From a virus (lineage: Duplodnaviria > Heunggongvirae > Uroviricota > Caudoviricetes): a stretch of 64,000 bases of DNA. The notes below the pieces were generated by a model. That model made no database searches. It saw nothing but the letters and a program-made list of their open reading frames with translations, and was not told where the DNA came from. The stretch lies in IMG/VR virus record IMGVR_UViG_3300006201_000009; one strand, given 5' to 3'. Below, in pieces: positions 23,899-41,553 of the stretch (within the stretch, counting starts at the first letter, position 1; every line of letters begins with the position of its first letter). The translations under genes and the position numbers were made by a program.

Positions 23899-23978
23899 TG
23901 GTGGAGCTGTTGGGATTTGAACCCAAGTCCTACGAATTCACTTTGGTTTTAATCGTAGTCGAAACCTTTCTCAGCCCC
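23899..23978 (-). ncRNA. tRNA-like RNA with canonical acceptor stem, T arm and CCA but aberrant D/anticodon region
   Basis: GGGGCTG...TTGGGTTCAAATCCCAA CAGCTCC A CCA; central part folds as an 5-bp stem (TACGA/TCGTA) with a 17-nt loop rather than a cloverleaf. Confidence 0.4.
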
Positions 23979-23979
23979 A

Positions 23980-24055
23980 TGGTTGGCAAGGATGGAATCG
24001 AACCATCGGCAACTGGTTTATAAGACCAGCCCCATCACCACTTGGGTACTTGCCA
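23980..24055 (-). tRNA. tRNA with anticodon UAU (Ile-like, AUA-decoding)
   Basis: Acceptor TGGCAAG/CTTGCCA, U8A9, D stem CCCA/TGGG loop AGTGGTGA, anticodon stem CTGGT/ACCAG loop CTTATAA, T loop TTCGATT, A73, CCA. Confidence 0.6.
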
Positions 24056-24060
24056 ATATG

Positions 24061-24136
24061 TGGAGCTGGATGTCGGACTTGAACCGACAACCTATCGCTT
24101 ACAAGGCGATTGCTCTGCCAATTGAGCTAATCCAGC
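24061..24136 (-). tRNA. tRNA-Thr (UGU)
   Basis: GCTGGATTAGCTCAATTGGCAGAGC; anticodon stem ATCGC/GCGAT loop CTTGTAA; T loop GGTTCAAGTCC; CCA. Confidence 0.65.
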
Positions 24137-24138
24137 GT

Positions 24139-24216
24139 TGGTCACCGCAGAGGGGGTCGAACCCTCAAACTCCACCGTGAAAGGGTGGTGACTTTAGCCA
24201 TTTTGTCTATGCGGCG
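24139..24216 (-). tRNA. tRNA-Glu (UUC)
   Basis: Anticodon stem CCACC/GGTGG loop CTTTCAC; T loop GGTTCGACCCC; CCA; acceptor with one G-U. Confidence 0.55.
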
Positions 24217-24368
24217 ATAAAAATATATAGGCTGTTCCTCAAACTCCATTTAACGTATCGTTATTTTCCGGCGCCCCAGTCAATAACTTTATCCATCCTT
24301 TCCCCGTTTCAATGCGGGTGTCTGCTTTACACTTCACTTCGCGGTTAGTACGGCACCTATATATTTTT

Positions 24369-24515
24369 TGGTGACTCGAACAGGAATTGAACCTGTACAT
24401 CTATCCCGTTTCTCGGCTACATACTGCAATGCAGGGATGTCGCGAACATCGCCGTAACCTACGCTTTAAGGCTTACTGTTCCCTCAGGGGTGTTCTATCA
24501 TTGAACTATCGAGCC
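24369..24515 (-). ncRNA. 147-nt tRNA-like RNA: canonical acceptor, U8A9, D arm, T arm and CCA, with ~70 extra nt replacing/inside the anticodon-variable region
   Basis: 5' GGCTCGA-TA-GTTC-AATGATA-GAAC ... 3' ACAGG-TTCAATT-CCTGT-TCGAGTC-A-CCA; 7-bp acceptor pairing (one G-U); internal small hairpins (CCCTGAGGG, GCGATGTTCGC, CTGCATTGCAG). Confidence 0.45.
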
Positions 24516-24518
24516 AAA

Positions 24519-24608
24519 TGGCGGAGGGTGTAGGACTCGAACCTACGCTCCGAATGAACGGAGAACGGCTTAGCAAGCCGCGGCAGTACCAACTATGCTT
24601 AACCCTCC
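24519..24608 (-). tRNA. tRNA-Ser (GCU), type II
   Basis: Acceptor GGAGGGT/ACCCTCC; anticodon stem GCGGC/GCCGT loop TTGCTAA; variable arm CTCCG-TTCATT-CGGAG; T loop GGTTCGAGTCC; CCA. Confidence 0.65.
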
Positions 24609-24622
24609 AAGCGGGAGCATCG

Positions 24623-24886
24623 CTACTCCCAATATGGATATATTTCAGCATCCGACACGTCTCCGTGAGACCATTTTACTGCCTTTCCGGCGTGAACAAT
24701 GGGCTCATCTTCTTTGTCATCGAATGATTGTTGTACCTTTTGCGTTGCGGCTTCTTCATTTTTTGCAAACACAACTCGTTGTCCATATATTCTGCCGCCG
24801 TCAAAGTAGGTTCCAGAGTAGGGAACTGTGAATTTCTTTAATCCTTTAATCATAAAACACCTATTCTGTATTGAAATTTTCGCCAT
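24623..24886 (-). CDS. Hypothetical protein
   Basis: ORF only. Confidence 0.3.
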   Translation of the reverse strand: MAKISIQNRCFMIKGLKKFTVPYSGTYFDGGRIYGQRVVFAKNEEAATQKVQQSFDDKEDEPIVHAGKAVKWSHGDVSDAEIYPYWE

Positions 24887-25133
24887 TCGCAGATATAAAG
24901 GTTGTAACAGCTTTTGCTATGTCATTTTTTTCACCTTTGATAACGAGAGTAAGTTCAGTTTGATACGATTGCTTGCACTTAACTATTGCTATATTAAATC
25001 GCGAATGATTTCGTATGAACCATTCCAGTGCGTGACGAACAGGGACATACAGGTATTCGCCAAATGAACACGTGCGGTCATATTTATGCACGGAATTTAT
25101 GTGAAGCACTTTCTTTCTTTTCATATTGACCAC
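24861..25133 (-). CDS. Hypothetical protein
   Basis: ORF only. Confidence 0.3.
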   Translation of the reverse strand: MVNMKRKKVLHINSVHKYDRTCSFGEYLYVPVRHALEWFIRNHSRFNIAIVKCKQSYQTELTLVIKGEKNDIAKAVTTFISANGENFNTE

Positions 25134-25156
25134 CTTTTTTGAATAAAAGAGTACTT

Positions 25157-25378
25157 TTATTTAAGGTTACGCAAGATTGTTTTCTTGTCTATGTCACACA
25201 TCTCGCAAAGTTCATCAAACCAGTCAGACGAAAAGAATTTTTTCAGCTCTTTCATATTGAAGTCCTTGCATTCCGTGGCTTGTCCGTTCCGTAATGCTCG
25301 GAAATCTGAGATTGCTTGTAGCAATACTGCGGCAATCAATCTGCGAATGGTTGTTTGATCAACATACTGTGTGCTCAT
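25157..25378 (-). CDS. Hypothetical protein
   Basis: ORF only. Confidence 0.3.
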   Translation of the reverse strand: MSTQYVDQTTIRRLIAAVLLQAISDFRALRNGQATECKDFNMKELKKFFSSDWFDELCEMCDIDKKTILRNLK

Positions 25379-25402
25379 ATTTATGTATCCTTATAAATTT
25401 TT

Positions 25403-25491
25403 TGGCGGAAGCGGTGAGATTTGAACTCACGAACCCTTGCGGATTGCCAGTTTTCAAGACTGGTGCAATAAACCAAGCTCTGCCACACTTC
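25403..25491 (-). tRNA. tRNA-Ser (UGA), type II
   Basis: Acceptor GGAAGTG/CGCTTCC; anticodon stem CCAGT/ACTGG loop CTTGAAA; long variable arm; T loop GGTTCAAATCTC; CCA. Confidence 0.6.
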
Positions 25492-25502
25492 CATAGTAGG
25501 GT

Positions 25503-25974
25503 TTAACCCCACACGACGGCGCATAAACTTGCAAGTCGCGCTCTATATTCAAAGTCTTTCGGTAAAAAATTGCCGTACAAGAGCTTCATTTCCGAAATCA
25601 AAGCCTCTTCGCTTTCATAAGCTTGCTCAAACAGCGACGCATACCTCGGTAAACACATCAAAACCCAATCATCGTTCTCAACATCAACACCTATTTCGTT
25701 AATGTCTTTGATAAGAGGGGTAAAATCACCGTAAATATCGTTTCCGTATGACCATTTGTGACAGATTACACCTTGTTCCCAATTTTCTTTGAGATAATAT
25801 TGGCTATCGTCGCAAATGTATTGTCTAATGGCGTCGTATATATCTTCGCCTTCGTCGGGTTCAAGCTCAATGCCGTCTTTTTCTTTAATATATTCGCGGA
25901 ATTTTTCCACGTCGATTTCCTGAATTTTGACCGCAAGCCCTTTATCGCTCACGGCATAGCTGTGTGTACTCATA
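25503..25974 (-). CDS. Hypothetical acidic protein
   Basis: AAGGAG RBS before MSTHSY start; longer ORF-track version overlaps tRNA-Trp and is rejected. Confidence 0.4.
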
Positions 25975-25988
25975 ATTGCTCCTTTTTT

Positions 25989-26062
25989 TGGCAAGGGTGG
26001 GGCGAATTGAACGCCCATCAATGGTTTTGGAGACCACCGTCCTACCATTAAACGACACCCTT
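25989..26062 (-). tRNA. tRNA-Trp (CCA)
   Basis: A1-U72 acceptor AAGGGTG/CACCCTT; anticodon stem GTGGT/ACCAT loop CTCCAAA; T loop GCGTTCAATTCGC; CCA. Confidence 0.6.
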
Positions 26063-27346: not shown

Positions 27347-28146
27347 TGACGCAGTACGTCAACTTTAATTTGCTCCAACTTTGCGTAAGCAGTTCCGTCA
27401 CAATCCGTGCCATGTTCGTCAATGTATTTGTTCTTCAATGCCGCGTTTTCGTCGTCCAATTCTTTTGCAATTTTCAGCGCGTCTGCAAGCGGAATAGTAT
27501 TGAGTTTGGCTTCCGTCATTAAAATGAGTGTTTGCTCGTCATGTGATGTAAGGCAATCTGTAAACGGCATACCGGATAGGTAGTTCTTCATAAATTCGTT
27601 GATGCGAATGATGTGATGAAGTTGCTTTCCGTCATACCCGTACTTGTCGATTTTATGTTTAATAGTAGGGTAGGGGTGGCATAGAGCCTTGTACTTTTCA
27701 TAGCTCATACCAGCCATTGTTTTAAGTGTTTGCGAAGGATGGCAGTGAGTCAACTCTTCAGCAAGGCGCCGCAATTTTCTCCAATGCTTTACATATTTGT
27801 CCGCGACAATGAAATATTTTGTAAAAAGTATTTCAACGAAGTTCACGTTCTGCTTCTTAAAAGTCTCAAACATGATTCGCATATCTTTCAGATCGATGTG
27901 TTCTTTATTGGCGCGCTCACAAGTGGTGGAGATTGGAGACTTACCGCGGCAAAAATCATCAAAAGAAGGAAGAACAATAACCTTCGTATCAACGTCACTT
28001 TGATACTGTTCGCTATACACATCGAGATTGTAGTTCTGGCTTCCTTGCAAGAAAACTCCAAAAACTTCGTTTCCCATAAGGCAGGCTTCTTTGTAGTGTT
28101 GTTGCACTTTTGCGTTGATGAGATTATTACGTTCTTTTTTGTCCAT
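27322..28146 (-). CDS. Pol-beta-superfamily nucleotidyltransferase
   Basis: GS...DxD motif FLQGSQNYNLDVYSEQYQSDVD; start taken at internal MDKKERNN preceded by AAGAGG. Confidence 0.45.
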   Translation of the reverse strand: MDKKERNNLINAKVQQHYKEACLMGNEVFGVFLQGSQNYNLDVYSEQYQSDVDTKVIVLPSFDDFCRGKSPISTTCERANKEHIDLKDMRIMFETFKKQNVNFVEILFTKYFIVADKYVKHWRKLRRLAEELTHCHPSQTLKTMAGMSYEKYKALCHPYPTIKHKIDKYGYDGKQLHHIIRINEFMKNYLSGMPFTDCLTSHDEQTLILMTEAKLNTIPLADALKIAKELDDENAALKNKYIDEHGTDCDGTAYAKLEQIKVDVLRQWFKEQLI

Positions 28147-28156
28147 TGATTGCCTC

Positions 28157-28819
28157 TTAAAGTCCTGTTTGTTCTGTATGGAAGCAGAGCGGCTGACCTG
28201 TTGTTTTGTCGATACCTTCACCAATAACTCGTATATACTTATCGTGCTTCGTGCTTGTCTGCTCAATGTAGACCGTGCCCTTAAAATTCTTAATAAGCGT
28301 AGTTGTCCACGGTTTTTCGGTGTGATAATCGAATTGCGGGTTGTAATTTAATACCTCGGACAAAAGGAAAACGCCAACCATACCAGCATCAGCACAGAAT
28401 TTGCCAAGCTCCCTATTCGTCTTGTCCTCAAAGGTGGTGCAGCTCCAATCACCGTAGATTGTGCTGTTGGTGAGGTATGTGGTGAGACCAAGTTTTTCCA
28501 TTTCATCCCCGTATGAGCAGATATACCAGTCATCAGGGTGAGCTTTATCCCACGCATCGTAAGCTTCACGCATTTTGTCGTACTGAGGGCGGAATTCATT
28601 CTTCATAATGTCAGCAATTTGCTCAGCCGTTAACCCTTCAGCTGCGAGGTCTTTGTCGTTGTAGCTTTTCCTGCTCATATAATCGTCCCACTTGGGTTCG
28701 TCGGTTGTGTCGCGATCCTTGGTAATATAACAAGGGTCTGTTATAATGATATCTCCGTCAAATGACATTAATTTGAGACGTTCTCTGACCATAATTTTCT
28801 CCTTACGCGCCGGCAACAT
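28157..28819 (-). CDS. Hypothetical protein (ITDPCY motif)
   Basis: ORF; no confident family. Confidence 0.3.
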   Translation of the reverse strand: MLPARKEKIMVRERLKLMSFDGDIIITDPCYITKDRDTTDEPKWDDYMSRKSYNDKDLAAEGLTAEQIADIMKNEFRPQYDKMREAYDAWDKAHPDDWYICSYGDEMEKLGLTTYLTNSTIYGDWSCTTFEDKTNRELGKFCADAGMVGVFLLSEVLNYNPQFDYHTEKPWTTTLIKNFKGTVYIEQTSTKHDKYIRVIGEGIDKTTGQPLCFHTEQTGL

Positions 28820-29699
28820 CGCACTGATGAAAAGTGTCTAATAATTTCGACAACTCGTCTGGCAATGCCGCGCTATATTTTGTGTGAAGGAACACATCCA
28901 TATGTACGTTAATAAGCCAATAAATCAATGCTCTCTGTTTGATATGTAGGGGAATGGTTTCTTCGTATCCAATGGCGAAGTAGCTTCCCACATTTTGATG
29001 GTTGTAGAAGTGAGCAATCTCGCTCGGTTCGCCGCGGCTATTCTTAAAGCCTTTCACGAATTTTTTCCCAATATCGTGTAGACTTGCCGCAATAAGCAAC
29101 GTAATTGCAACTCCTTTGTGTGAACTTCTGTTTTTCTGCAATTTTGCGGCTTCCGTCATAACTTTCAAAGTGTGTTCTTTGACTGTGTTGTTATGATGAG
29201 GATTGTCGTGTTCGCAATCGAGCCAATTTTCATAATCGCTGTGCTTATAAGATTCGTCGTTTACCTTAAACTCAATTTCATCCCAGCCCTCATCGTAATA
29301 GGGTGGCTGAAAATTAAGAAGCATACGCTTAATGACACTTTCGCCTACATTACGATTTCTGCTACAGTCCCTCGCTACGCAAGTTTCGTATCTTGCCCAT
29401 ACTACGCAGGCGATTTTCTTGCAAGGTATTTTGAGACTCGATAAGAGATGTTTGCGCTTTTTGCGACTGATGTTGGTTGCATCATATACAACATTCTTGC
29501 TGCTTTTAAGTGCGGCGATAGTGCGGCGCTGCATTTCCTCAAATATTTTAGAAGGGTTGTCCTGAATAGCTTCGTCGCCATAGAACTCTTTTCTTATCGC
29601 GTCGGAGGATAAAATAATTGTATTGTCGTTGGTGAGTTGTTTTGCAACCTCGGTTTTGCCGGAGCCAGGCAATCCTATAAGCATAGTGAATTTAACCAT
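28803..29699 (-). CDS. P-loop polynucleotide-kinase-like domain fused to HD phosphohydrolase (HD-Pnk-like)
   Basis: Walker A LIGLPGSGKTEVAKQL; C-terminal HD motif LLIAASLHDIGKKF; GGAGAGG RBS before MVKFTMLIG start. Confidence 0.5.
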   Translation of the reverse strand: MVKFTMLIGLPGSGKTEVAKQLTNDNTIILSSDAIRKEFYGDEAIQDNPSKIFEEMQRRTIAALKSSKNVVYDATNISRKKRKHLLSSLKIPCKKIACVVWARYETCVARDCSRNRNVGESVIKRMLLNFQPPYYDEGWDEIEFKVNDESYKHSDYENWLDCEHDNPHHNNTVKEHTLKVMTEAAKLQKNRSSHKGVAITLLIAASLHDIGKKFVKGFKNSRGEPSEIAHFYNHQNVGSYFAIGYEETIPLHIKQRALIYWLINVHMDVFLHTKYSAALPDELSKLLDTFHQCDVAGA

Positions 29700-30054
29700 A
29701 GACGACCTCTCCAAAAATCGCATACTGGATAATTGCGTCTGCATCTTCGGCATCGATTTCACCTGCATCGATTTTTCCTTCGTAAAGAATATCAAGCCCA
29801 CGCTCTTCGGCAATCTTTGTTAATCCGGCTATAAACTTTTCAAGATTAAGTTCATACCATTTGTCTTCATCGGAATCGTGAAGCCTAAGTGTGCCGCCGC
29901 GAGAAATCTGATCGCTTGCATATTCTCCGAGATGATCTCCAACAACTTCGGCGCAATCACACCAGTAAGAAATCCCGCCATCTAATGCGGTGCTCATTAT
30001 ATCGTCAATGCACTGATTGTCGTATTCAACTTCATAAGTAATGGTAAGTTTCAT
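29692..30054 (-). CDS. Hypothetical acidic protein
   Basis: Start MKLTITYE preceded by GAGG RBS and GTGTCTAAATATG motif; longer ORF-track version would translate the motif. Confidence 0.35.
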   Translation of the reverse strand: MKLTITYEVEYDNQCIDDIMSTALDGGISYWCDCAEVVGDHLGEYASDQISRGGTLRLHDSDEDKWYELNLEKFIAGLTKIAEERGLDILYEGKIDAGEIDAEDADAIIQYAIFGEVVYG

Positions 30055-30079
30055 GTTGCGCCTCGTGTCTAAATATGTT

Positions 30080-30694
30080 TTATTTTTGTTTAATTTTATC
30101 GCCAAAGAGTTGTTTGGCTTTCTTTATGTAAAACTTGCTCAAATCATCGTCGCTCATTTCGTTGTCGAAGAATTCATCGATACAAGCGGGGTCTTGACCT
30201 TGCATAGCGGGAGGCATATCACTGTACCACTCATGGATATATGCAGCATAGATCAAAATATCTTCAGGCTCATAACAATCAAGACCAACAAGAGGGGAGA
30301 TACCGCCGTCCGTAAGGACGTTGTCAAGTTCATCCCAGTTAATTTCCCAAAATTCATCGTTCTCGTTGAGTGCTTCCTGCCAATGGCTCACCAATTCATC
30401 TACGACTTTTATTGGTAATGCTTTAACAATTTCTTCGACTTCTTCTCCAAAATATTCCTTGGCTTGCGTTATCACGTCTTCTCTGTGATACTCCGCATCG
30501 ACCTCTCTTGAGATTATTTCGCGATTGTCATAAATGAACTGAACAAGTGCATCTTCAAAATCATAGTAGGGCTGATCTTTTAAGTGTGAAACCGCAGGAT
30601 TCTTATCGATAAATTCGGCAACCTTTTGCCTTATCGAGTTATCGCCACACTCGTCCCAAAATTTGTCGTTTCTCATATGGTCTCCTATTAACAA
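30080..30694 (-). CDS. Hypothetical acidic protein
   Basis: ORF only. Confidence 0.3.
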   Translation of the reverse strand: MLIGDHMRNDKFWDECGDNSIRQKVAEFIDKNPAVSHLKDQPYYDFEDALVQFIYDNREIISREVDAEYHREDVITQAKEYFGEEVEEIVKALPIKVVDELVSHWQEALNENDEFWEINWDELDNVLTDGGISPLVGLDCYEPEDILIYAAYIHEWYSDMPPAMQGQDPACIDEFFDNEMSDDDLSKFYIKKAKQLFGDKIKQK

Positions 30695-30741
30695 CGAGTT
30701 TATTTATAAGCACCATTCGGTGCTGATTTTTTGATTTTAGA

Positions 30742-31464
30742 TTAAATACAAAAGCCGAAAGCGACGCCGACACTGTAGTTGGCACTGAGGTAATTGCTGA
30801 AACCGGTGCTGGAGACATAGCAGAAGGAGCTGCTATTATTGTAATACGGAGAGCGAAGCCACTTCTCATTGTTAAACGTTCTATTTTCAGTCAGTACAAA
30901 ATACTCATACTGCTCATTCTCGCCAAGGCGGGAGTATTCAATCTCTCCACGGATTTCAACTTCGCTGAACAAGAAGCATTTATCTGTGGTGCTGACTATC
31001 TCTTGACTTCCGCCACCCGCAGAGGTGCGCTTAATAACAGGCTTAATGGCGTTGCGAAGTGTTTCGGGTAGCAGTCGCAAAATCCTTTCCATGCGAACAG
31101 TTCTCATTTCGCTGTCTTTCCAGCTCGTAGTGTTGGTACGTTCCGCGTTCATTCTGAAAAGACCGTCCATTTCCAAGATGCCGAAGGTTGCTTTCGCATT
31201 ACCTTCACGCTCTGCAAGTTTATCCTTGTCAGTATCAAGCAAAATCATTTTGACTTTTTCGCCCGTATAAAGCTCGATTATTTTGTAATCGCCAACGCCG
31301 AATCTTTCCGTAATATCGTCGTTGTTGTTGATATAATCGACGAGCTCTTCGAGGGAGCAGTCAATTTCCTGCGGCACGTGGGTTCTCGTCTTTTTGAAGA
31401 CCTTACAATTATGGCAATGGGGTTCCTTACCGAACATTTCACAGAAACTGCATTTTGCTTCCAT
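30742..31464 (-). CDS. Hypothetical protein with N-terminal zinc-ribbon
   Basis: CSFCEMFGKEPHCHNC. Confidence 0.3.
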   Translation of the reverse strand: MEAKCSFCEMFGKEPHCHNCKVFKKTRTHVPQEIDCSLEELVDYINNNDDITERFGVGDYKIIELYTGEKVKMILLDTDKDKLAEREGNAKATFGILEMDGLFRMNAERTNTTSWKDSEMRTVRMERILRLLPETLRNAIKPVIKRTSAGGGSQEIVSTTDKCFLFSEVEIRGEIEYSRLGENEQYEYFVLTENRTFNNEKWLRSPYYNNSSSFCYVSSTGFSNYLSANYSVGVAFGFCI

Positions 31465-31469
31465 ATGTA

Positions 31470-31925
31470 TTACCTCTTAATATTTTTTATCGCCTCAGTG
31501 GCGAGCTTGTCGCATTCATTATTGAATGCGTTATCGGAATGACCTTTAACTTTGATGAACCTAACCTTATGCTTCTTGGTAAGTTCGATAAGTTTGAGCC
31601 ACAAATCTTTGTTTTGTACTGGCTTTCTGCCACTTGTTCTCCAGGCGGAATTCTGCCAGTTTGTAATCCAGTTTTGGTTGAATGCGTTTACAACGTAGGC
31701 AGAGTCGCTATACAATGTTACTCGACTTGGTGTTTTTAATGCGAGAAGGGCATTTATAACGGCGGCTAACTCCATTCTATTGTTGGTAGTTTCGGCTTCA
31801 CTGCCACTTAACCGTTTAGAGTGTGTGCCGCACATTAAGATAGCACCCCATCCGCCCACACCAGGGTTTCCTGAGCAAGCTCCGTCTGTGTAAATTGTTA
31901 CATCATACATATTGCATTCCTCCAA
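31470..31925 (-). CDS. rnhA: Ribonuclease HI
   Basis: IYTDGACSGNPGVGGWGAIL...TNNRMELAAV...DSAYV...KGHSDNAFNNECDKLA is collinear with RNase HI catalytic DEDD residues. Confidence 0.7.
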   Translation of the reverse strand: MEECNMYDVTIYTDGACSGNPGVGGWGAILMCGTHSKRLSGSEAETTNNRMELAAVINALLALKTPSRVTLYSDSAYVVNAFNQNWITNWQNSAWRTSGRKPVQNKDLWLKLIELTKKHKVRFIKVKGHSDNAFNNECDKLATEAIKNIKR

Positions 31926-32474
31926 AAATATTTGCCGTTACAATCCATGTAAGAAATTGTTGATCATGAAGAGTCACTGAAGTCCGCCACGATGGAAGTT
32001 CTGTAAGTTCGTTAATCATAAATTTGATATTTTGTCAAGAAAGTTTCAATTGAAAGTGGGAAAATAAATTTATTTTCTTGCCGAATTACATTTGTTGTTG
32101 GCTCTTTCTGTGTCGAATTCCTCACCATATTGGTTTCAGGAGCAGGTGATTGCGCATTTGCTGCCTCTGGCAGGCACCGTCTCTCTGACATTTTGGCACT
32201 TTAGATTTAACCTAAAGCTCTATCCGAAGATAGACATAACGATTGTAATGTGAAGCTCAAATACGAGAAAGGGGCGGCGGCAAGCTCCAGAGGAGAGCCG
32301 CCGTTTACGAATCTAACTTTTATCATAAATTAAACTCAAGTTCGCAGAAATTGGTTTAATTTATTATCAAAGTTGGATTTGTATGTGGGATTGTCTTGTT
32401 ACATCCGATATAACCAGATGCCCAATGCTATGTATTAAATTGGAATTTCTATTTAAGCTTCATTTGCTTTTGTC
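31926..32474 (-). ncRNA. ~550-nt non-coding region downstream of RT containing structured repeat element A (candidate ncRNA)
   Basis: No ORF >=60 aa; contains conserved element at 32186-32260 with covarying hairpins. Confidence 0.3.
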
Positions 32475-33623
32475 TTAACCGGCGCGGAGAACCTCTTTGA
32501 TGGTTGCTTCCACGTCTTTGTGAAATTTCTCACTGTACGACTTGATTATCGTTTCGATTGTTTCTCCCTCGACCATTTTGTAATAGGAGATAAGCCCTTG
32601 TAGGTGTTGGGTATCTTCCAGTGACCACGTGTTGCCGTTTTGCTCATCGTTCATAAACGAGAACAGCATTGCCTTAAAGACTTTCTTTTTGGAGTGTCCA
32701 ATCGTGATTTGGTTGTCGTTGTTAAGCATAACGCCTAAATTCCAGTTACGCCCCGCCGAACTTCCGTATCTCGTTTTATTGGTGTTAAGAGTAAACGGAG
32801 CGTGGAATTTATTATTTACAATATCTAATACCGCGTTCTGCACATCGCCCCAGTTGAACGACAAGTCACTCGAAAGGATGATGTCGTCCGCATATCTTGT
32901 GTAAATGAGATGGGGAGTATGTTCTCTCGACATTTTTGCAATAGCGTGGTCAACCGGTATCATAAACAGATTGGTAAGAGTAGGGCTTATCGGGGTTCCT
33001 TGCGGCAAACCGTTATTCAAGTAACACAACGACAATGCTTTCGTTAATTCTTCGCGACCATCTTCACGTGCAAGTATCTCATTGTAGGGGAAGATAAGAG
33101 AAAGTTGCGCAAGAATAAATTCAGGCTTGGAACTTCCGAAGAAATCGTGGAAGTCGAGTTTGAGAAACCAGCGCGACTTATTACGTTGATGTCTCTTAAC
33201 CGCGTCGATTGTACTTCTGCCTTTAACGTAAGCAAACGCTGCGGTGTGATAACTCGCAAAAAGTTGCTTCTCAAATAAAAATTTGAGTTCTTTCAATGCA
33301 CCCATCAATTCATCGAGAGGCGCATTTATTTGGCGCAAGCCGCCGCTTCTTTTGGGAATTTTGAAACTCCTATACAAAGTGGACTTATCCTCGGTGTTGA
33401 TGAGGTCAATATGCCTTTCGTTGAACTTATGAAGAGCGGTTATCATTGCGTCTATATTAACGCGATCCAAAAGACGTTGCGGGGTTCTTTCGCGATAGAC
33501 GGTCTTCGTGTCGTGGGTGTTTTCCATTTGACGCGCAAATGCGGCTTCGTTCATTCCGTTCAAAATGTCGTCAAATGATACTTGGTACATTTTTTCAGGT
33601 ACCGGTGCTGTTATGTATGGCAT
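32475..33623 (-). CDS. Reverse transcriptase (stand-alone RT, retron/UG-DRT-like size; no maturase or endonuclease domains)
   Basis: RT motifs FKIPKRSGGLRQINAP (1/2), LDFHDFFGS (A/3), GLPQGTPISPTLTNLFM (4), YTRYADDIIL (YADD, 5); 382 aa. Confidence 0.75.
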   Translation of the reverse strand: MPYITAPVPEKMYQVSFDDILNGMNEAAFARQMENTHDTKTVYRERTPQRLLDRVNIDAMITALHKFNERHIDLINTEDKSTLYRSFKIPKRSGGLRQINAPLDELMGALKELKFLFEKQLFASYHTAAFAYVKGRSTIDAVKRHQRNKSRWFLKLDFHDFFGSSKPEFILAQLSLIFPYNEILAREDGREELTKALSLCYLNNGLPQGTPISPTLTNLFMIPVDHAIAKMSREHTPHLIYTRYADDIILSSDLSFNWGDVQNAVLDIVNNKFHAPFTLNTNKTRYGSSAGRNWNLGVMLNNDNQITIGHSKKKVFKAMLFSFMNDEQNGNTWSLEDTQHLQGLISYYKMVEGETIETIIKSYSEKFHKDVEATIKEVLRAG

Positions 33624-33934
33624 TTGTGTGCCTCCTAATAAACTGATTTTTGTGAAACGGGCTTCTGAAGGTGACCATGGGTCTCGTTGTTGATGTAGAT
33701 TACCGGTCAGTTTCGTGGAGAAACTCGTAGGATTTCTTAAATGTTGGGGTGATTTTGGGAGTTTTGATAAGGTTACGAATAGCTGATTTGGTGCTTTCGG
33801 CTACTCGCACGCCGATGACGTTCGGCGAGCATCTCGGGATGGAGGTGCTGGCGTCCTTCGTCGCCCTGACATTTTGGCACTCTGGATATAATCCAAAGCC
33901 TTATCCGAAGATAAGCATTGCTTTATTAGTTGTT
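33624..33934 (-). ncRNA. ~310-nt structured non-coding region upstream of RT containing repeat element B (candidate RT-associated ncRNA)
   Basis: No ORF; GC-rich hairpins (gccgatgacgttcggc) and UUCG-hairpin element. Confidence 0.3.
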
Positions 33935-34609
33935 TTAATATGCGTCTACTTCAAAATTGAACGCATCGATTGTTACAATCTTTTTCAGTTCGTTCTTACG
34001 GATGAAGTTCATAAAATTTGCTACACCGTATGAGCAAACAATTCGGACGGTCGGTGCAATGCCCATTTCTACGTGACACGCCGTCATAGGAGTGGACTCT
34101 TGCGCTTCTTCGTGAGAAAATTCCATTCCCTTAATGAAGTTGTCCACGCTTTTCGGATCGCGCCAATCCGCAGCATAATGCTGAGCATCTTCGAGCCTTG
34201 TCCTAAAATCAAACATTGCTTTGATGGACATATTCGGCTTATTTTTTGTCGCAATCGTTCTACGCAGGTCGATATTGTCAACGCAGAGAAAGACATAGCC
34301 ATTGAGCTTGGTCTTTTCCGACCAGCCGTCGTTGCAAATTTGGATGTCGTTCTTCGCTTCGGGATTGATTGCAAGAAGCATATCCCTTACGGCTTCCGTC
34401 TTTAATCGCTTAATGTCGGCATTTACAAACATCTGGTTCGCAAGGTTATGTGCCGATACAACGTCGAAGTCGTACAAAGATATCTTGGTAAGTCCAAGAC
34501 GAATGAGGAGTTCTGCTACCGTCGAGCCGACCGAGCCGCAGCCAATAATATGGCAACGGTTCGTAACCTTAATCGGGTCGAAGTAGTCCTGAGATTTTAC
34601 AAGATTCAT
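33935..34609 (-). CDS. Minimal E1-like ThiF/MoeB-family adenylyltransferase
   Basis: Rossmann GxGxxG IIGCGSVGSTVAELLIRLG followed by LYDFDVV; 224 aa; operon with JAB and Ubl-like genes. Confidence 0.6.
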   Translation of the reverse strand: MNLVKSQDYFDPIKVTNRCHIIGCGSVGSTVAELLIRLGLTKISLYDFDVVSAHNLANQMFVNADIKRLKTEAVRDMLLAINPEAKNDIQICNDGWSEKTKLNGYVFLCVDNIDLRRTIATKNKPNMSIKAMFDFRTRLEDAQHYAADWRDPKSVDNFIKGMEFSHEEAQESTPMTACHVEMGIAPTVRIVCSYGVANFMNFIRKNELKKIVTIDAFNFEVDAY

Positions 34610-34611
34610 AT

Positions 34612-35550
34612 TTATCTACCTCCGTATCGTCCGTAGCCGTACACACCACTATAATAGTCATCGTCAAGCGGGTCAGGGGCGTCATCGTCAAGAGCACTCA
34701 GTTGACGCGCTTCTTGCTTAGCTCCAATCTTCGGAGATTTTGTAGTTGTAGCGGGCGTCGTTTGCGCTGCCGCTGTGTTTCCATACGAACCGCCGTAATG
34801 GGAACCTCCGCCGTAATTGCCACCGCTATATCCACCGCTGTTATAGCTGTATGTCTTTTCCTTAACGAGCTCTTTTGCTTCGTCGAGGAACTTCGTAAGC
34901 CAGCCAGCGGACTCGTGAAGAATGTTGATTTCGTCCGTTGAGTAAAGCGCATTATTCTGTAAATCGTACACTTCACCGCTTATGTCGCCCTTTTTGTTAA
35001 AGATAAGGAAAATGTAGAAGTAATCGGACTTAGCCGACGGCATTCCGAAGTTGTTCAAAATATTTCTGCGGTAAGTCATATCAACGGTTGACGGGGTAAC
35101 GCCCATATTCACATGGGAATGTCCATGGAAACGGAGAGCGTTGAACGTGTTGTTATCGAGACCGTCAAGCCACTCTTCATAAGCCTTTTGGTCGGAAGTT
35201 ACAGTTGAACCTGTAACTTCGTGGGGGAAAACAAGGATATCCTCAATGAGGAACGTGTCGGGAGCGGTTCTCTTTACAACTCCGTGCCACTCAACCTCGG
35301 TAGAGTAGGAGTGGACGAGTGCAAAAATCTTTATCCACGCTGTTTCTGTAAAGATAATGTTTGCTTTACGATCGTCTTTTACTTCTTTGAGCTTGAAGTT
35401 GAGGGTTACGCCCTCGGATTGGTCGCCCTGAAATTTTTTCTTTTTGAGCTGGCGACTTTCTTCGATGAGTTGCGCCTGAGCGCTACGCAGAAATTCATTG
35501 ACTTCTGCTTCGGTAGGGAATATTTTTTTAGCCATTTTCAGCACCCTCAT
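34612..35550 (-). CDS. JAB/JAMM-family metallo-isopeptidase with Gly/Tyr/Ser-rich low-complexity C-terminal tail
   Basis: JAMM motif E...HGHSHVNMGVTPSTVD (HxHx7SxxD); C-terminal GGYSGGNYGGGSHYGGSYG...YYSGVYGYGRYGGR. Confidence 0.65.
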   Translation of the reverse strand: MRVLKMAKKIFPTEAEVNEFLRSAQAQLIEESRQLKKKKFQGDQSEGVTLNFKLKEVKDDRKANIIFTETAWIKIFALVHSYSTEVEWHGVVKRTAPDTFLIEDILVFPHEVTGSTVTSDQKAYEEWLDGLDNNTFNALRFHGHSHVNMGVTPSTVDMTYRRNILNNFGMPSAKSDYFYIFLIFNKKGDISGEVYDLQNNALYSTDEINILHESAGWLTKFLDEAKELVKEKTYSYNSGGYSGGNYGGGSHYGGSYGNTAAAQTTPATTTKSPKIGAKQEARQLSALDDDAPDPLDDDYYSGVYGYGRYGGR

Positions 35551-36913
35551 TTTGTCTATTCTCTCTTATATAAGCAAGAAATTCGTGAAGTGTCATCTCT
35601 TTCCCGTTATCAGCAAGTATGCACTTACGTGGCGTGTCAAATGTATTGCGTACATCGTCTACAAACTCTCTGATGACAGTAGAATCACCAAAGTTAATGT
35701 TTTTAACGGCGGCAATGGTTTGTTCGATAGCCATATCCCAATTACCTTGTTCCATATAAGAATTGATGTATCCCTCGTTACCACCAAGACAAGCGTGATG
35801 ATACAGGTGCGGATGGGGCAAATGGGTGTTGTTAAATTGTCCAGAAACGTAGCCTCTTCGAGCATTAAGACTTGAAAGGTTAACCAACCTGAACATACCT
35901 TCAACCCTAAAGACGCCCTTGTTTTCGGCAAACACCCCATAAAAGACATCTTTGATATCTTTACTTGCGCCACCGATTGCTGAATGTTGATTGTTATATA
36001 AGCGCAAGAATGCGTCGGCATCAAAATACTCTATCGTTTCGACAACAGAGAAGTCCATTACGTTGCCATCGGTGCCTTGCGAGGTATTACAAATTGTGAT
36101 CTGCCTATGCGACATAAAGAACTTGTAAACGCTGTCGTCTGCACTATTTCCTTGTGCTTGAAGTGCTTCTAAATTGATGCTGCTTTGATTGATCTTATTG
36201 AGCAAGCTTGTGATTTCCGCTTGATAACGTTCGATTGAACTGTGATATTCGTCGCATTGTCTTTTTAGAAGTGATATCTGCCTCGTGCGATAGCCGTCAT
36301 TCCAGCCGATAAGTACCTTTCTAAACCGAGATGACTTAAAATCATACGGCGCACATAAATTATCTATGATTGTCCTAAACGCATCCTCGTTTTTGTCGTT
36401 GATAGCTTTGAACAGATTTTTTTCGTCGTTACTTATGCCCTCGGTGAAATACCACGGAAGAATTCTGAACATTATGGAACAGAACATATCCATCCATTTT
36501 TCCGAAGAAGAATTTCTCACAAAGACGATAGTGCTTCTTAAAGCCATATTGGAATAAACGCGGGTTTCCGATGCACCGGAAAGATAGGGGGCGACAGGAT
36601 ATGGAGGCGTATCCAGCGCAACCCAACCCTCTTCGTTAATTGTAGGTAGCTGTGCGCCACGGGGTGCGGTTAAAATATAGAGTTCGATGCCATATTCTTT
36701 GGCGCGATAAGCATACTCGTTTCCGTTGGTACGCTCGTAAAACTGATCGGTTTCACACTTGATGGTTTTAATCGTTTCTATATCGCCCTGATGGTGTTTC
36801 AGGGCGATGAAACGTAAAACTGCTCCAAGCGTAAAACTACCCAAAGGGGAGTTATTATTGCCAAAGAAAGCGTTAGCATCAGAACTCGTGATGATAGTAT
36901 TCACGTAGTTCAT
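35528..36913 (-). CDS. Large protein with possible C-terminal E2/UBC-like element (HPH...C)
   Basis: THLPHPHLYHHACLGGNEGY resembles the UBC HPN-x(6-8)-Cys active-site context; position between Ubl-like and JAB genes. Confidence 0.3.
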   Translation of the reverse strand: MNYVNTIITSSDANAFFGNNNSPLGSFTLGAVLRFIALKHHQGDIETIKTIKCETDQFYERTNGNEYAYRAKEYGIELYILTAPRGAQLPTINEEGWVALDTPPYPVAPYLSGASETRVYSNMALRSTIVFVRNSSSEKWMDMFCSIMFRILPWYFTEGISNDEKNLFKAINDKNEDAFRTIIDNLCAPYDFKSSRFRKVLIGWNDGYRTRQISLLKRQCDEYHSSIERYQAEITSLLNKINQSSINLEALQAQGNSADDSVYKFFMSHRQITICNTSQGTDGNVMDFSVVETIEYFDADAFLRLYNNQHSAIGGASKDIKDVFYGVFAENKGVFRVEGMFRLVNLSSLNARRGYVSGQFNNTHLPHPHLYHHACLGGNEGYINSYMEQGNWDMAIEQTIAAVKNINFGDSTVIREFVDDVRNTFDTPRKCILADNGKEMTLHEFLAYIRENRQNEGAENG

Positions 36914-36938
36914 ATCCTGTACGCTCCTTTATGTATTC

Positions 36939-37175
36939 TTATCTTGCGCCGTCGGCTTTAACGATGCTGTTCAAGTTGACGGTTGCGCCGTCTGCCACGC
37001 CGAGCTGCTCGAAAGTCGAGTTCAAATCCGTTATCGTAAGAATGCTTCCGTTGAGGTTGACCATTGCGCCGGCAACGCCTGCATCCGCCTGTTCAAATAC
37101 CTGAGCGGGGGTCTTCGTTACTTCCGTGATAACTTCCTGGCGCATCGTGTTGGTTTTTACAAGAACTTTAATCAT
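36939..37175 (-). CDS. Small beta-grasp/ubiquitin-like candidate (78 aa)
   Basis: Size, predicted beta-rich fold, position at head of E2-JAB-E1 operon; ends ...VKADGAR (no terminal GG). Confidence 0.3.
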   Translation of the reverse strand: MIKVLVKTNTMRQEVITEVTKTPAQVFEQADAGVAGAMVNLNGSILTITDLNSTFEQLGVADGATVNLNSIVKADGAR

Positions 37176-37306
37176 AATGATTTCTCCTTAATTTTGATTT
37201 TTTGTGGATGTGGGTGACCGGTCACTGGCTCGCCGTACCTATCTGTCCTTTAAGTGAGCAACCCACAGGGGAATGGGGCGCGTTTCAGCGCCCCGCCGTC
37301 TGTTTG

Positions 37307-37708
37307 TTACGCTACGGTGATGCCGTCGATGAGCTTCTTGCGCTTGTCGGCAACCGCTTTCGCCGCTTCGGAAACACTCTTTTCGAGCTGTTCAAGGTAG
37401 GCAATCACGCCGCCGAACTCTTCCGCAACGAACTTCTTCGCTTCGTCGGTATTGAGATGAGGGGGGAGCATCTTGGTGATGGTTGCGCATCCTTCTGCGC
37501 CTTCGCCGCGCCCTTCGCCGCTGAACGTCACGCCGAACGGAGCAACGCTGGGTTTACCCTCGATGTAGTCTACGCCGAAAAGCGTTTTCTTGGTTTCTTT
37601 GTCCACGATAGTCAACGCTGCGGGGTTGTACTTCTTAAGAAGTGCGATGTCCGATACCTTGATGGTGGACGTGAGTGCATAAGCATCTCCGGTGATTGTG
37701 AGTTTCAT
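37307..37708 (-). CDS. Hypothetical protein
   Basis: AGGAGA RBS; upstream operator-like inverted repeat GTGTCTAAT...ATTAGACAC. Confidence 0.35.
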   Translation of the reverse strand: MKLTITGDAYALTSTIKVSDIALLKKYNPAALTIVDKETKKTLFGVDYIEGKPSVAPFGVTFSGEGRGEGAEGCATITKMLPPHLNTDEAKKFVAEEFGGVIAYLEQLEKSVSEAAKAVADKRKKLIDGITVA

Positions 37709-38166
37709 TACTTGACTCTCCTTTTGAAAAAATATTTTTTATCTCAACATTGAGTTGGATACAAACTATGTGTCTAATACATTGCCCCTCACTACATTAG
37801 ACACTTTTATAAACAATAGTAACGGAGAAACGAGAAGTTCGAGGGAACTTATTCGTTTTTGCAAATTACATTACCTATTCTGTATTGCGCTCCTTTATAG
37901 TTCTCGGTGTGCAAGTCAATAGGAACTTGCAACCAAAGCCCTGCTTCTCAGGACTAATAGCGACCTGTAAGTTATTCGCTCACTCCGCATCAATCTTAGT
38001 GTCGGGATCACACTTCGACTTGATTACGCATCCGTTCCATTTTGGATTATCTAATTGCCCTCTATGCCTACCGCAGGAAGAGGAGAGTGGGGCGGAGCCC
38101 GCTTCGGACGCTACGCTTTCAATTACAATGGCGTAGTCTTTTCTGATGACCGATATTTTATATATC

Positions 38167-39711
38167 TTAACCCTTAACGGCTTGCTCTACGAGAGCGTAA
38201 CGTTCGCTGTTAAGTTGTTCAAGCAAGCACTCAAACGGGTCGGTGGAATTGCTGAGAACCATTTTGACAATGGCGGGACTGAAACCGCTTACCAGAGCAA
38301 CGCCGAGTTCGTTTTCTTTTACGGGGATAGTTCCCGTGCGGCTGCAAATATTCCAGAAAACCAAGCGGGGGAGTTTGTAGCCGAGCTCTGCATAACGCTT
38401 TGCGATAACAGAGAAAAGCTTTTCGTCAACCCTCGCATATCCATATCCTGATCGACGAGAAGATACCGCACAGGAATCAAATTCCATATCGGAGAGGATA
38501 AGGATATTTGCGGGCAGTTCACTCTGCTTCATGTGTGCTTTTATCGCAGTTGTTAATATTAAGTCAAACACAGCTTCGATGTTTGTGTTTGCAACTTCAT
38601 TATGGGTGCGAGCAATGCCTATTTTATCGCGAAGCGATTTGCCGCTCGCGAGGTTGACGAGTTGCGGATGTTCGCTGAACGTGATGTACTTATCTTTGAA
38701 CTGCCCCGAACTTCTTTCGGCAAAGTAAATTGCCAAAGCGTTGGCGACATCGAGGCAAGAAACGCCCGTACCACCAACCGTCGAAGTCATACTGCCAGAC
38801 CCGTCGGCTACGCAGATCGTGTTGCCGTTTTCTTTGACGTAATCGGGAAGTGCCTTCCACATTTCTTCAAGGGCGGTATCCTTGTCCAAAAGACCGCCCC
38901 AGCTTCCTTTGCTGTATTTGTGAACGATATCGTGAGGGAAGAGGACACCCGCATTGATTTTTGTTTCACCCCTTTCGAGCTTGGAAAGATACTCTCTACG
39001 GCGTTCTTCGTCGTTGCGCAAGAAAGCTTTGTTGTAGATAAGGTTCGCTCTCGACGGAACCGCTGCGTATTCGATCGCCGACCACTCACGGTTGCTCATC
39101 TTAACTTCTACTACGTTCGTATAAGAGCGCAGAGCGGAGAGCATTTTACGATACTGTCTCTCAGTGATGCCGAGCTGACCGATAAGCAGTTTTGCATAGC
39201 GGCGAGTTTCTGCGGAAGAAGCATTTGCGGACGGCATCCATTTTGCACACAGCGAAATCGGTTGTTTGCGACCATAATTGCTCATATCACTGTCCAGCTG
39301 CTCTTTGATGATTGCCACAACCTCGTTGTGAAGCGCGGTGTCGAGCAGAACGATGAGATTATCCCATCGAGTGTATTCGGGGATGAGCTTGAGAAGTTTC
39401 AACGCAACGGCAGGTTCTTCCTGAATAAGATATTCCATACCGATACGGAACAATCTGCGTTCACCAAGACCGCCACGAACATCGCCGGCATAGAACAGCC
39501 ACTTGATAGCGAGCAATTTATCTTCGTAATATGCCTTTGCAAATCTCGCTCTGATATTTGCAGGAACCTCGTTACGTAACGAAGACACCGCAAAGTTGAT
39601 GTCGAGCAAAGCCTTGCCCGAAGTACGATACCCAACCGCGCCGTTTTCGGTACGCGATTCGTTGAAGTCTTCGCCGAGCGTGCGTTTGAGATTGTCCATA
39701 AAGTTGTTCAT
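38167..39711 (-). CDS. rsr: Ro60/Rsr-like protein (TROVE-like N-terminal region + vWA domain with MIDAS)
   Basis: vWA MIDAS CVADGSGSM; ~515 aa; GGAGG RBS before MNNFMDNL; the 611-aa ORF-track version is an artefactual extension across two tRNA-like genes. Confidence 0.5.
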   Translation of the reverse strand: MNNFMDNLKRTLGEDFNESRTENGAVGYRTSGKALLDINFAVSSLRNEVPANIRARFAKAYYEDKLLAIKWLFYAGDVRGGLGERRLFRIGMEYLIQEEPAVALKLLKLIPEYTRWDNLIVLLDTALHNEVVAIIKEQLDSDMSNYGRKQPISLCAKWMPSANASSAETRRYAKLLIGQLGITERQYRKMLSALRSYTNVVEVKMSNREWSAIEYAAVPSRANLIYNKAFLRNDEERRREYLSKLERGETKINAGVLFPHDIVHKYSKGSWGGLLDKDTALEEMWKALPDYVKENGNTICVADGSGSMTSTVGGTGVSCLDVANALAIYFAERSSGQFKDKYITFSEHPQLVNLASGKSLRDKIGIARTHNEVANTNIEAVFDLILTTAIKAHMKQSELPANILILSDMEFDSCAVSSRRSGYGYARVDEKLFSVIAKRYAELGYKLPRLVFWNICSRTGTIPVKENELGVALVSGFSPAIVKMVLSNSTDPFECLLEQLNSERYALVEQAVKG

Positions 39712-39831
39712 AGTTACCTCCAATGAATTAAAATATGAGATTTTAACTCCAAGACGGGATTCAAAAAGAGATTTCAAGTCCTTGTTTTGTAACGTTGCTG
39801 TTACCGTCTTTGAGTTGATGGTACGAAAGAA

Positions 39832-39950
39832 TGGGAGCGGTGGGACTCGAACCCACGACCACGAGCTTAAAAGGCTATTCAGTAAAATTGCTGTGAGAGA
39901 TTTTACAAACCTCGTAGTGATACGTGCTCTACCAACTGAGCTACGCTCCC
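39832..39950 (-). ncRNA. Y-RNA-like tRNA mimic 1 (acceptor + D arm + T arm; anticodon arm replaced by 8-bp stem with 41-nt loop)
   Basis: GGGAGCG-TA-GCTCAGTTGGTAGAGC ... GTGGG-TTCGAGT-CCCAC-CGCTCCC-A; no CCA. Confidence 0.55.
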
Positions 39951-39956
39951 AAATGA

Positions 39957-40073
39957 TGGAGATGGTAGGACTCGAACCTACAACCTTCGGCACCCTATGC
40001 AAAAGTAAAGTTGCTGTATGAGCCTAACAAGACTCGTCTTTAACGACGCTCTATCCAGTTGAGCTACATCTCC
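39957..40073 (-). ncRNA. Y-RNA-like tRNA mimic 2
   Basis: GGAGATG-TA-GCTCAACTGGATAGAGC ... GTAGG-TTCGAGT-CCTAC-CATCTCC-A; expanded central region; no CCA. Confidence 0.55.
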
Positions 40074-40491
40074 ATAAAAGGTAGGGAAGGGAAGAAAGTG
40101 GTTTTTGTGAGGAAAGTATCAATTTCTTCTTTTAGCTGTAAACGTGTTTGCTGTGTGCGAACCCTACCCATTTCGCAATAACAACACATTCTTCCCTTAA
40201 CACAAGGCACAAAATATAGATGTTAAATTTACCATAAAAATTTGATCTAAATAATTGCTGTATGTGCCTTTACTATATATAGTTTTACAGGCGATAACTA
40301 TAAACGCCAGCAGCCATCCAATGTTTTAAGCCCACGGGTTGCCATGACAGGCTCTCATCAGCCGACGCTACTGATGAGCAAATGTAAGTACAAGACGCTT
40401 TAAGTTTGCGGGAGTTGAACCCGCTCAAATTCTTTTACAGGAGAATATTTTTTACCGTTTATATGTAAGTTGTTGTAAGCGTCTTTCAACA

Positions 40492-40677
40492 TTAGTTATT
40501 TAATATACATAAATTTTTAACAGGTTCGACATCAAGCCTGTGTGAATGATCGTTTTCTCGATATCCGACGGCAAGCACTTCGTCATTTTTAACAACAAAA
40601 GCAAGAATAATAAATACGCCGCGCATATCTCGATAATCTTCTTGACAGGCTCTCAATTTGGGGAATAATTGTTCCAT
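40492..40677 (-). CDS. Hypothetical small protein
   Basis: ORF only. Confidence 0.25.
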   Translation of the reverse strand: MEQLFPKLRACQEDYRDMRGVFIILAFVVKNDEVLAVGYRENDHSHRLDVEPVKNLCILNN

Positions 40678-40689
40678 AAAAGACTCCTT

Positions 40690-40887: not shown

Positions 40888-40896
40888 ATTACTCCT

Positions 40897-41541: not shown

Positions 41542-41553
41542 AAAACCTCTTTT

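Follow-up and report, generated by a model that had tools for sequence, protein, structure and literature searches.

The DNA considered here is a stretch of 64,000 nucleotides (nt) from IMG/VR virus record IMGVR_UViG_3300006201_000009, to which we refer as the window. It comes from a tailed phage of roughly 100 kb and holds genes for a terminase, a portal and a primase-helicase as well as an array of 14 tRNA genes. An earlier note on its sequence had reported three copies of a repeated structured RNA element, at 32186-32260 (copy A), 33858-33916 (copy B) and 42684-42740 (copy C), and all three are present at these sites. Copies A and B lie on either side of a reverse transcriptase (RT) gene, the only one seen in the window, which has a ThiF/E1-like gene upstream and a ribonuclease H (RNase H) gene downstream. 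The surrounding genes are all encoded on the minus strand, which is therefore the strand on which to read the element.

33935 to 34609, minus strand: ThiF/E1-like adenylyltransferase gene, immediately upstream of unit B (see below) and the RT gene.
32475 to 33623, minus strand: retron-type reverse transcriptase, 382 amino acids, with a YADD catalytic motif.
31470 to 31925, minus strand: phage RNase HI gene (PF00075, 1.4e-43; ribonuclease HI, 5.6e-60), directly after unit A (see below).

On the minus strand the copies share a core, YCAAAATGTCAGRGMGACG, which has exactly three matches in the 64 kb even when three mismatches are allowed; 0.12 would be expected by chance and none of 100 shuffles gave three. 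The same three sites emerge from a direct-repeat search, with 78-80% identity across 50 nt. Each copy follows the same order of a short arm (UUACAAUC in A, CUAAUAAA in B and UUCACAAUC in C), a G, about five bases, hairpin 1, hairpin 2 and a single-stranded motif. Hairpin 2 has a 9-bp stem that starts with GCUUU and shows compensatory changes among copies A, B and C, and the conserved single-stranded motif AGUryCAAAAUGUCAGRG lies 3' of it. The UUCG loop to which the earlier note had drawn attention is found in hairpin 1 of A (CUAUC-UUCG-GAUAG) and of B (CUUAUC-UUCG-GAUAAG), but C has another stem and another loop, and orthologues do not keep it either, carrying UUUC, GUAA, GCAA, AUC or GAAAA in its place.

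The covariation of the hairpins is genuine: once orthologues are added, 14 of the 15 pairs have double compensatory changes. A covariance model gathered 43 distinct sequences, in which 95% of the cells are paired (72.8% in shuffles), the observed covariation score is reached by none of 500 shuffles, and pairing falls to 27-47% when the partners are slid by 1-3 columns; the alignment of these sequences was fitted to the model's own structure and is hence biased towards it. An independent alignment of 13 sequences with MAFFT and RNAalifold agrees, giving a two-hairpin consensus in which 11 of the 15 pairs have compensatory double changes. The proposal that the element is a structured RNA with a function, encoded on the minus, transcribed strand, is thus upheld by covariation and by conservation in related genomes. 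The alignment and covariation check that had been suggested along with this proposal, run with homologues, gave strong covariation. Three diverged copies (D, E and F) had been missed.

Folding of the flanks first indicated a long-range pairing between bases 5' of the hairpins and a site about 300 nt downstream. Each copy forms the 5' part of a unit of 182-316 nt, in which an arm of 8-12 nt (a2) is followed by an invariant G and the two covarying hairpins; after a variable region come a second G and an arm complementary to the first (a1). A terminal helix of 8-12 bp between bases ending exactly at the invariant G and a site 170-370 nt downstream is found in 42 of the 45 model matches. The 38 units of a curated set have 20 distinct arm sequences among them, and a mean of 9.1 out of 10 arm positions pair, compared with 5.6 of 10 for permuted partners (maximum 6.6 in 2000 permutations); examples of such complementary arms are CUAAUAAA/UUUAUUAG, UUACAAUC/GAUUGUAA, GAAGCUUAAAUA/UAUUUGAGCUUC, GAUACUCAAACA/UGUUUGAGUAUC and UAAGCUCGGAUA/UGUCCGAGCUUA. 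The G 3' of a2 is invariant in all full-length model matches, and the base 5' of a1 is a G in 37 of the 38 curated units and in all six units of the window. The sequence ACGATTGT, which had been listed as a shared block, corresponds, in complement, to the 5' arm together with the priming G. This layout matches published retron msr-msd transcripts, in which terminal inverted repeats set two Gs face to face, the first of them followed by short hairpins and the second preceded by a template region (PMC7736814).

Searching the window with the covariance model yields six units (B, D, A, C, E and F), every one of them on the minus strand. A broader second model, applied with the speed filters off, returns the same six and nothing further above noise. 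The earlier count of three had overlooked D, E and F as well as the long-range pairing that defines a unit. The six units are as follows.

33635 to 33929, minus strand: unit B, 295 nt, containing copy B; a2 (CUAAUAAA) 33922-33929, G 33921, hairpin 1 33900-33915, hairpin 2 33879-33899, conserved motif 33859-33878, template 33644-33858, opposing G 33643, a1 (UUUAUUAG) 33635-33642.
32252 to 32461, minus strand: unit D, 210 nt, of a diverged subfamily and overlooked before; a2 32450-32461, G 32449, two msr hairpins, opposing G 32264, a1 32252-32263.
31938 to 32248, minus strand: unit A, 311 nt, containing copy A; a2 32241-32248, putative branching G 32240, hairpin 1 (UUCG) 32219-32234, hairpin 2 32198-32218, conserved GCCAAAAUGUCAGAGAGACG 32178-32197, a variable G-poor template of about 220 nt, opposing G 31946, a1 31938-31945.
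42434 to 42749, minus strand: unit C, 316 nt, containing copy C; a2 (UUCACAAUC) 42741-42749, G 42740, hairpin 1 42718-42735, hairpin 2 42697-42717, conserved motif 42677-42696, opposing G 42443, a1 (GAUUGUGAA) 42434-42442.
41803 to 42045, minus strand: unit E, 243 nt, of the D-type subfamily, about 700 nt downstream of C; a2 42038-42045, G 42037, opposing G 41811, a1 41803-41810.
23710 to 23891, minus strand: unit F, 182 nt, of the D-type subfamily, between the genes for tRNA-Ile and tRNA-Gln; 12-bp a2 23880-23891, G 23879, opposing G 23722, a1 23710-23721.

Three of these units flank the RT gene, with B upstream and D and A downstream. Unit B has its a1 arm adjoining the ribosome-binding site of the RT gene (UUUAUUAGGAGG...AUG). 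Unit D starts 14 nt past the RT stop codon, and its a1 is separated by only 3 nt from the a2 of A, so that D and A form a tandem array; unit A in turn ends 12 nt ahead of the RNase H start codon. Of the more distant units, E starts directly after the stop codon of the open reading frame (ORF) at 42054-42395 and F is embedded in the tRNA array (14 genes, minus strand, 21892-26062). The units fall into two subfamilies: in D, E and F the loop of hairpin 1 is rich in AUACAUA, and GGCAU...AUGUAACA replaces the GCUUU...AGUryCAAAAUG of the others.

The RT itself points in the same direction as the layout of the units. Its best matches are the PADLOC retron RT models (RT_II-A, 1.5e-53; RT_I-A, 2.4e-48), the NCBIfam model retron_St85_RT is matched at 1.8e-56, and the top 13 PDB matches are all retron RTs, with Ec83, Ec78, Ec67 and Ec86 as the best solved relatives. 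Retron RTs are marked by an NAxxH motif in region X and a VTG triplet in region Y (PMC7736814); in region X, a block H-x-A-A-x-A-Y-V-x-G is common to this RT and Ec83 (pairwise alignment only). Judged by these profile and structure matches, the RT is a member of the retron clade.

Linkage between units and RT is conserved. In metagenome assemblies we found more than 100 RT homologues at 60-99% identity, many of them on contigs of 94-103 kb, and the 13 loci that were fetched have a common gene order: two genes of unknown function, ThiF, a gap of about 310 nt, the RT, a gap of 540-900 nt and then usually RNase H followed by a DUF6273 gene. The element is present in both gaps and again about 7-10 kb upstream. 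Unit B before the RT and D followed by A after it recur in every relative examined, from 99% down to 55% RT identity; in L010 and L011 three units follow the RT. At 36% RT identity (L001) the ThiF stop codon overlaps the RT start and the RT is succeeded by two a2-G...G-a1 units in tandem, both with hairpin templates, and at 40% (L020) ThiF adjoins the RT and a canonical unit with a hairpin of about 105 nt comes after the RT stop codon. ThiF and the units are thus kept at 36-40% RT identity, and the module of ThiF, RT and non-coding RNA (ncRNA) is hence older than this phage group. The exact core motif had no match in IMG/VR, and among deposited phage genomes there was no DNA match, the best protein match being 41.7% identical and located on an unannotated gut contig. 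RT homologues at 80-84% identity occur in metagenome-assembled genomes (MAGs) of Christensenella and Christensenellaceae; on this basis the hosts are probably gut Clostridia of the Christensenellaceae, and some of the MAG contigs may be binned phage. A crAss-like affiliation was rejected: the closest genome bins are Christensenella and Christensenellaceae MAGs and the genes carry Shine-Dalgarno sites. RT homologues are also found on MAG contigs of 179-278 kb, and L011 carries genes for a PemK-type toxin and for a phage integrase (18252-19829), downstream of the RT by about 8 kb; the integrase and the large contigs suggest that some members of the group may be temperate prophages.

Units that are bounded by inverted repeats and present at several dispersed sites could also be copies or remnants of a small non-autonomous mobile element with terminal inverted repeats, similar to a miniature inverted-repeat transposable element. 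The arms do not behave like the ends of such an element. There are 20 distinct 8-mer arms, different among units and complementary within each unit, which speaks for selection on pairing and not for a transposase site. In addition, the units occupy the same syntenic positions in genomes with RTs that are only 55-85% identical, the internal msr is strongly constrained while the middle drifts, and two near-identical relatives (L013 and L014) show no presence/absence polymorphism with target-site duplications. Degenerate mobile-element remnants, which the earlier note had named as the finding that would speak against a functional RNA, are consequently not what the arms and the synteny describe, and we see next to no chance that this explanation is right.

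The placement of the units also bears on the claim that each copy sits at the 3' end of an operon and marks or processes it, and this claim is not supported. Copy B starts a 295-nt unit that fills the gap directly upstream of the RT start, copy A belongs to the downstream member of the D-A tandem, which is placed between the RT and RNase H genes, and a strong sigma-70-like promoter precedes copy C by about 155 nt; C therefore heads a transcription unit. No U-run follows either hairpin, and a search for terminator-like sites on the minus strand gave none at the copies. An intrinsic terminator was accordingly rejected, the hairpins being followed by the conserved CAAAAUG motif and not by U-runs.

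42907 to 42935, minus strand: sigma-70-like promoter, TTGACT-17-TATAAT, called from consensus matches only (11 of 12).

A 21-30 nt motif, TGTCTAAATATGTTTTATAAT, has at least 12 occurrences in both orientations. It is found at 4878-4919, 6478-6582, 10409-10450, 30057-30098, 42403-42444, 42836-42865 and 48476-48506, and in the opposite orientation at 11394-11422, 42907-42935, 49650-49678 and 53193-53213. Full copies fill the spacer and -10 box of the TTGACT-17-TATAAT promoter (e.g., from 42935 to 42907), and the motif probably represents a promoter of the phage into which a regulator site is embedded.

A more general form of the operon-boundary idea is that the units are structured RNAs that act in cis and independently of the RT, as 3'-UTR stabilisers, processing sites, terminators or small regulatory RNAs. 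Every copy lies between genes and shares their orientation, C, E and F are distant from the RT, and with the a1 of B next to the RT ribosome-binding site a cis-regulatory side effect is conceivable. Nevertheless, neither the missing U-runs and terminator-like sites nor the position of C after a promoter, in place of an operon end, fits such a role, and it leaves unexplained both the covarying long-range arms that end exactly at two conserved Gs and the three units that flank a retron-type RT in all relatives. We regard a role independent of the RT as improbable.

The variable regions between the msr and the second G, which would serve as templates, fall into two classes. The msd regions of the D-, E- and F-type units form long hairpins far more stable than shuffles (z = -4 to -12), among them a long hairpin plus a GC-rich hairpin in D of the window (z = -5.2), two long hairpins in E (z = -8.2) and the msd of F (z = -4.1). 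By contrast, the templates of about 200 nt in the A-, B- and C-type units are no more structured than shuffles (mean z = -1.1, +0.2 and -0.6, respectively). Their distal 150 nt are poor in G (14-15%, as opposed to 22% in the surrounding strand), with a C>G skew of about -0.25 in the distal template (e.g., 33643-33790, 31946-32100 and 42443-42600), and the 40-60 nt immediately following the CAAAAUGUCAG motif are rich in GC and show better conservation than the distal part. In close relatives with RTs that are 94-99% identical, msr and arms are 93-100% identical and the D template 80-95%, whereas the A and B templates are only 51-88% identical, with indels that include a 49-nt deletion; third codon positions in flanking genes show equal or higher identity (66-88%). 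With msr and arms kept and templates drifting, the middle of the A, B and C templates thus appears to be unconstrained or diversifying, and only the ends and the length are kept.

Several uses of the templates were considered and rejected. They have no significant match to the rest of the window, and as homology donors or antisense sequences to the phage genome they offer only chance-level matches of 10-15 nt elsewhere in the window. A stop-free frame as in Neo/DRT2 is not conserved on either strand. Small ORFs starting from the conserved AUG are not supported, as orthologues stop after 2-3 codons (L008_B, AUGUCGGAAUGA; L012_B, AUGAUAGGGUGA) and the AUG itself becomes UUG or AAG in some units. 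A diversity-generating retroelement (DGR) was rejected as well: a sensitive self-BLAST of the RT region against the window gave no repeat of the template/variable type, the differences between copies are not adenine-specific, and the RT matches retron and not DGR models.

A different reading accepts that the RT uses these RNAs, but in a way foreign to retrons, either as templates for unbranched or concatemeric complementary DNA of the DRT2 or DRT9 type or as regulators or scaffolds of the RT. Long, unstructured A, B and C templates unlike a canonical msd would suit it, as would the weak secondary matches of the RT to the Drt2 and Drt3a models. The retron models, however, have E-values that are about 40 orders of magnitude better than those of Drt2 and Drt3a, a Neo-like gene is unsupported for want of a conserved stop-free frame, and the a2-G/G-a1 geometry is specific to priming on a 2'-OH as in retrons. 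We give a non-retron use of the RNAs only a slight chance.

We therefore propose that the repeats are very probably the msr modules, responsible for RT recognition and priming, of retron msr-msd genes that form an array for a single phage RT; this degree of confidence covers the architecture and the assignment to the retron family. The architecture of the units, their covariation, their conservation and their linkage to an RT of the retron clade are direct observations. Several points weigh against the proposal. The retron_St85_RT score of 191.6 bits is under the curated cut-off of 235 bits, and NLG stands opposite the VTG of Ec83 in a single pairwise alignment, with the most conserved G retained. 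A, B and C, that is, all three copies noted earlier, are without the long stable msd stem-loop expected of a retron. C, E and F lie about 8-9 kb from the RT, unlike the normally contiguous ncRNAs of retrons. A PADLOC scan of six neighbouring genes found no known retron effector, only E1-E2-like matches to the ThiF gene, and a cmscan of 28000-46000 against Rfam (E <= 1) gave no match on any retron-like unit. On the other side, one unit immediately precedes the RT start, where the msr-msd gene of a retron canonically lies.

In the retron model that we propose, the minus strand would be transcribed, with C expressed from its own sigma-70-like promoter and B, D and A probably carried on the ThiF-RT-RNase H transcript. 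In each transcript a2 would pair with a1 and set the G after a2 opposite the G before a1. The single RT would then bind the two shared hairpins, start synthesis from the 2'-OH of the G that follows a2 and, working from the a1 side back towards the msr, copy the variable region into single-stranded DNA (ssDNA), and the adjacent phage-encoded RNase H would trim the copied template RNA. Since the six units share the msr hairpins but differ in their templates, one enzyme would make six different DNAs: hairpin-type products of roughly 80-150 nt from D, E and F, and unstructured products of about 200 nt from A, B and C. Reverse transcription, branch linkage, the role of RNase H and any biological function are what we infer by analogy with the established biochemistry of retrons. 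That one RT can serve several units is feasible, as engineered tandem msr-msd arrays are processed by a single retron RT (10.1101/2023.07.17.549397).

The neighbouring genes supply candidate partners. RNase H takes part in the maturation of retrons, and the phage RNase HI is a candidate for the removal of template RNA from the RNA-DNA hybrid. Every relative, including those at only 36-40% RT identity (L001, 2297-2956; L020, 1733-2455), has a ThiF/E1-like gene immediately ahead of its RT gene, and the product of this ThiF/E1-like gene may be a functional partner of the retron; no link between ThiF and retrons is described in the literature searched, which leaves out most subscription journals. 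ThiF is preceded by conserved genes of 461, 312, 133 and 78 amino acids, for which Pfam, PHROGs and PADLOC gave nothing useful, and Pfam and PHROGs showed no effector-like domain in the neighbouring genes. With no known retron toxin nearby, the classical toxin-antitoxin model of defence is not obviously applicable. Our preferred guess is that an RT without effector and its set of multicopy single-stranded DNAs (msDNAs) serve the phage, as a decoy or antitoxin mimic against host immunity or in an exclusion system linked to ThiF; a role in phage DNA metabolism is another candidate. Put in its fullest form, this idea is tentative and rather unlikely to hold in all its parts: a clade of phages or prophages of about 100 kb in gut Clostridia, probably Christensenellaceae, would have turned a retron into a natural multi-template DNA factory, with one RT, a ThiF/E1-like enzyme, a phage RNase HI, six or more msDNAs and no toxin. 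The products might act as a surrogate RT-msDNA 'antitoxin' or as ssDNA decoys that silence host retrons or immunity sensing ssDNA or single-stranded DNA-binding protein or, alternatively, might feed a new ThiF-dependent exclusion system. If the decoy version is true, the fast-evolving A, B and C templates would reflect an arms race.

Some further features of the phage stand apart from the array. A DUF6273-domain protein (30742-31464 and orthologues), with a distant match to Hoc-like/surface-decoration PHROGs, always follows RNase H, and a second DUF6273 gene lies upstream in L008 and L009. A nicotinamide phosphoribosyltransferase gene is located at 18367-19860, and relatives have RNA-repair-type genes near the tRNA array (KTI12/AAA_33 kinase-like, HD and metallophosphatases, with Thg1 in L011). 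The Rfam matches in 28000-46000 comprise two to the tRNA model and two weak ones below the gathering score (a miRNA model and YrlA). Both tRNA-model matches (39832-39950 and 39957-40073) are unusually long (119 and 117 nt; 51.7 and 50.6 bits), received no ARAGORN tRNA call and overlap the 5' end of the minus-strand ORF 38167-40002, and the weak match to YrlA (Y RNA-like) is at 39899-40009. This ORF matches PHROG 850, 'RNA-binding protein', and its orthologues carry DUF2828/DUF7788; it may encode a phage Ro60-like protein with Y-RNA-like partners, and its true start is probably downstream of those RNAs. Finally, an exact 42-nt direct repeat (GTGTCCGCTCACTTAAAGAGTAGCGGGGGGCGGGGTGTCCGT), with copies 59 nt apart at 46525-46625, and G/T-rich GTCCGT-type repeats close to it (47058-47922) coincide with a switch in gene orientation from minus to plus, and may represent an origin, a packaging site or another regulatory region.

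According to current understanding, retrons are a three-part bacterial defence with one RT, one ncRNA and one toxin, and they have been heavily engineered as DNA factories inside cells. By profile and by solved structures, the RT of the window belongs to the same clade as those of retrons I-A and II-A (Ec78/Eco7, Ec83, St85/Sen2) and Ec86. The units resemble canonical retrons in their terminal inverted repeats, the G after a2, the opposing G and the short msr hairpins, of which retrons have one to three and these units two, as well as in the long msd hairpins of D, E and F and the presence of one unit directly upstream of the RT. They differ from every type described so far in that six ncRNA genes are available to one RT instead of one, some following the RT in tandem and others scattered as far as about 9 kb from it, and in that two structural subfamilies exist, three units having an unstructured, G-poor and rapidly evolving template of about 200 nt. 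In addition, there is no known effector or toxin but a conserved ThiF/E1-like partner, NLG takes the place of VTG, and the system resides in a tailed phage of about 100 kb with its own RNase HI. If the proposal is true, retron biology would extend beyond toxin-antitoxin defence, with six templates per RT, two template classes and a ThiF partner, and one RT would recognise many msr variants and accept an unstructured template of about 200 nt, which raises the question of what a phage does with multicopy single-stranded DNA.

DRT2 and DRT9 are similar insofar as an RT copies an adjacent structured ncRNA into DNA, but they belong to the UG/Abi clade and are without the a2-G/G-a1 geometry, and the stop-free frame of DRT2 is absent here. 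In Staphylococcus jumbo phages of a virulent type, e.g., MarsHill gp206, a retron-like RT with an extra N-terminal domain and no recognisable effector lies next to a long non-coding region presumed to hold an ncRNA (10.1101/2020.12.14.422802). That RT is only about 25% identical to the one of the window, and no ncRNA structure, copy number or ThiF partner is described there. Neither natural retrons with multiple ncRNAs nor phage retrons of this kind are described in the full text searched, to which the same restriction on subscription journals applies; within that literature we found the multi-template arrangement described only as an engineered tool. Such multitrons were made from retron Eco1 for multiplex genome editing (10.1101/2023.07.17.549397). 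Like the array of this phage, they combine tandem msr-msd units, each with its own template, with a single retron RT; the array of the window, in contrast, is natural and conserved across a phage clade, and its templates are without homology elsewhere in the window. If the proposal is true, the phage array would provide both a natural precedent and natural parts for multiplexed retron arrays.

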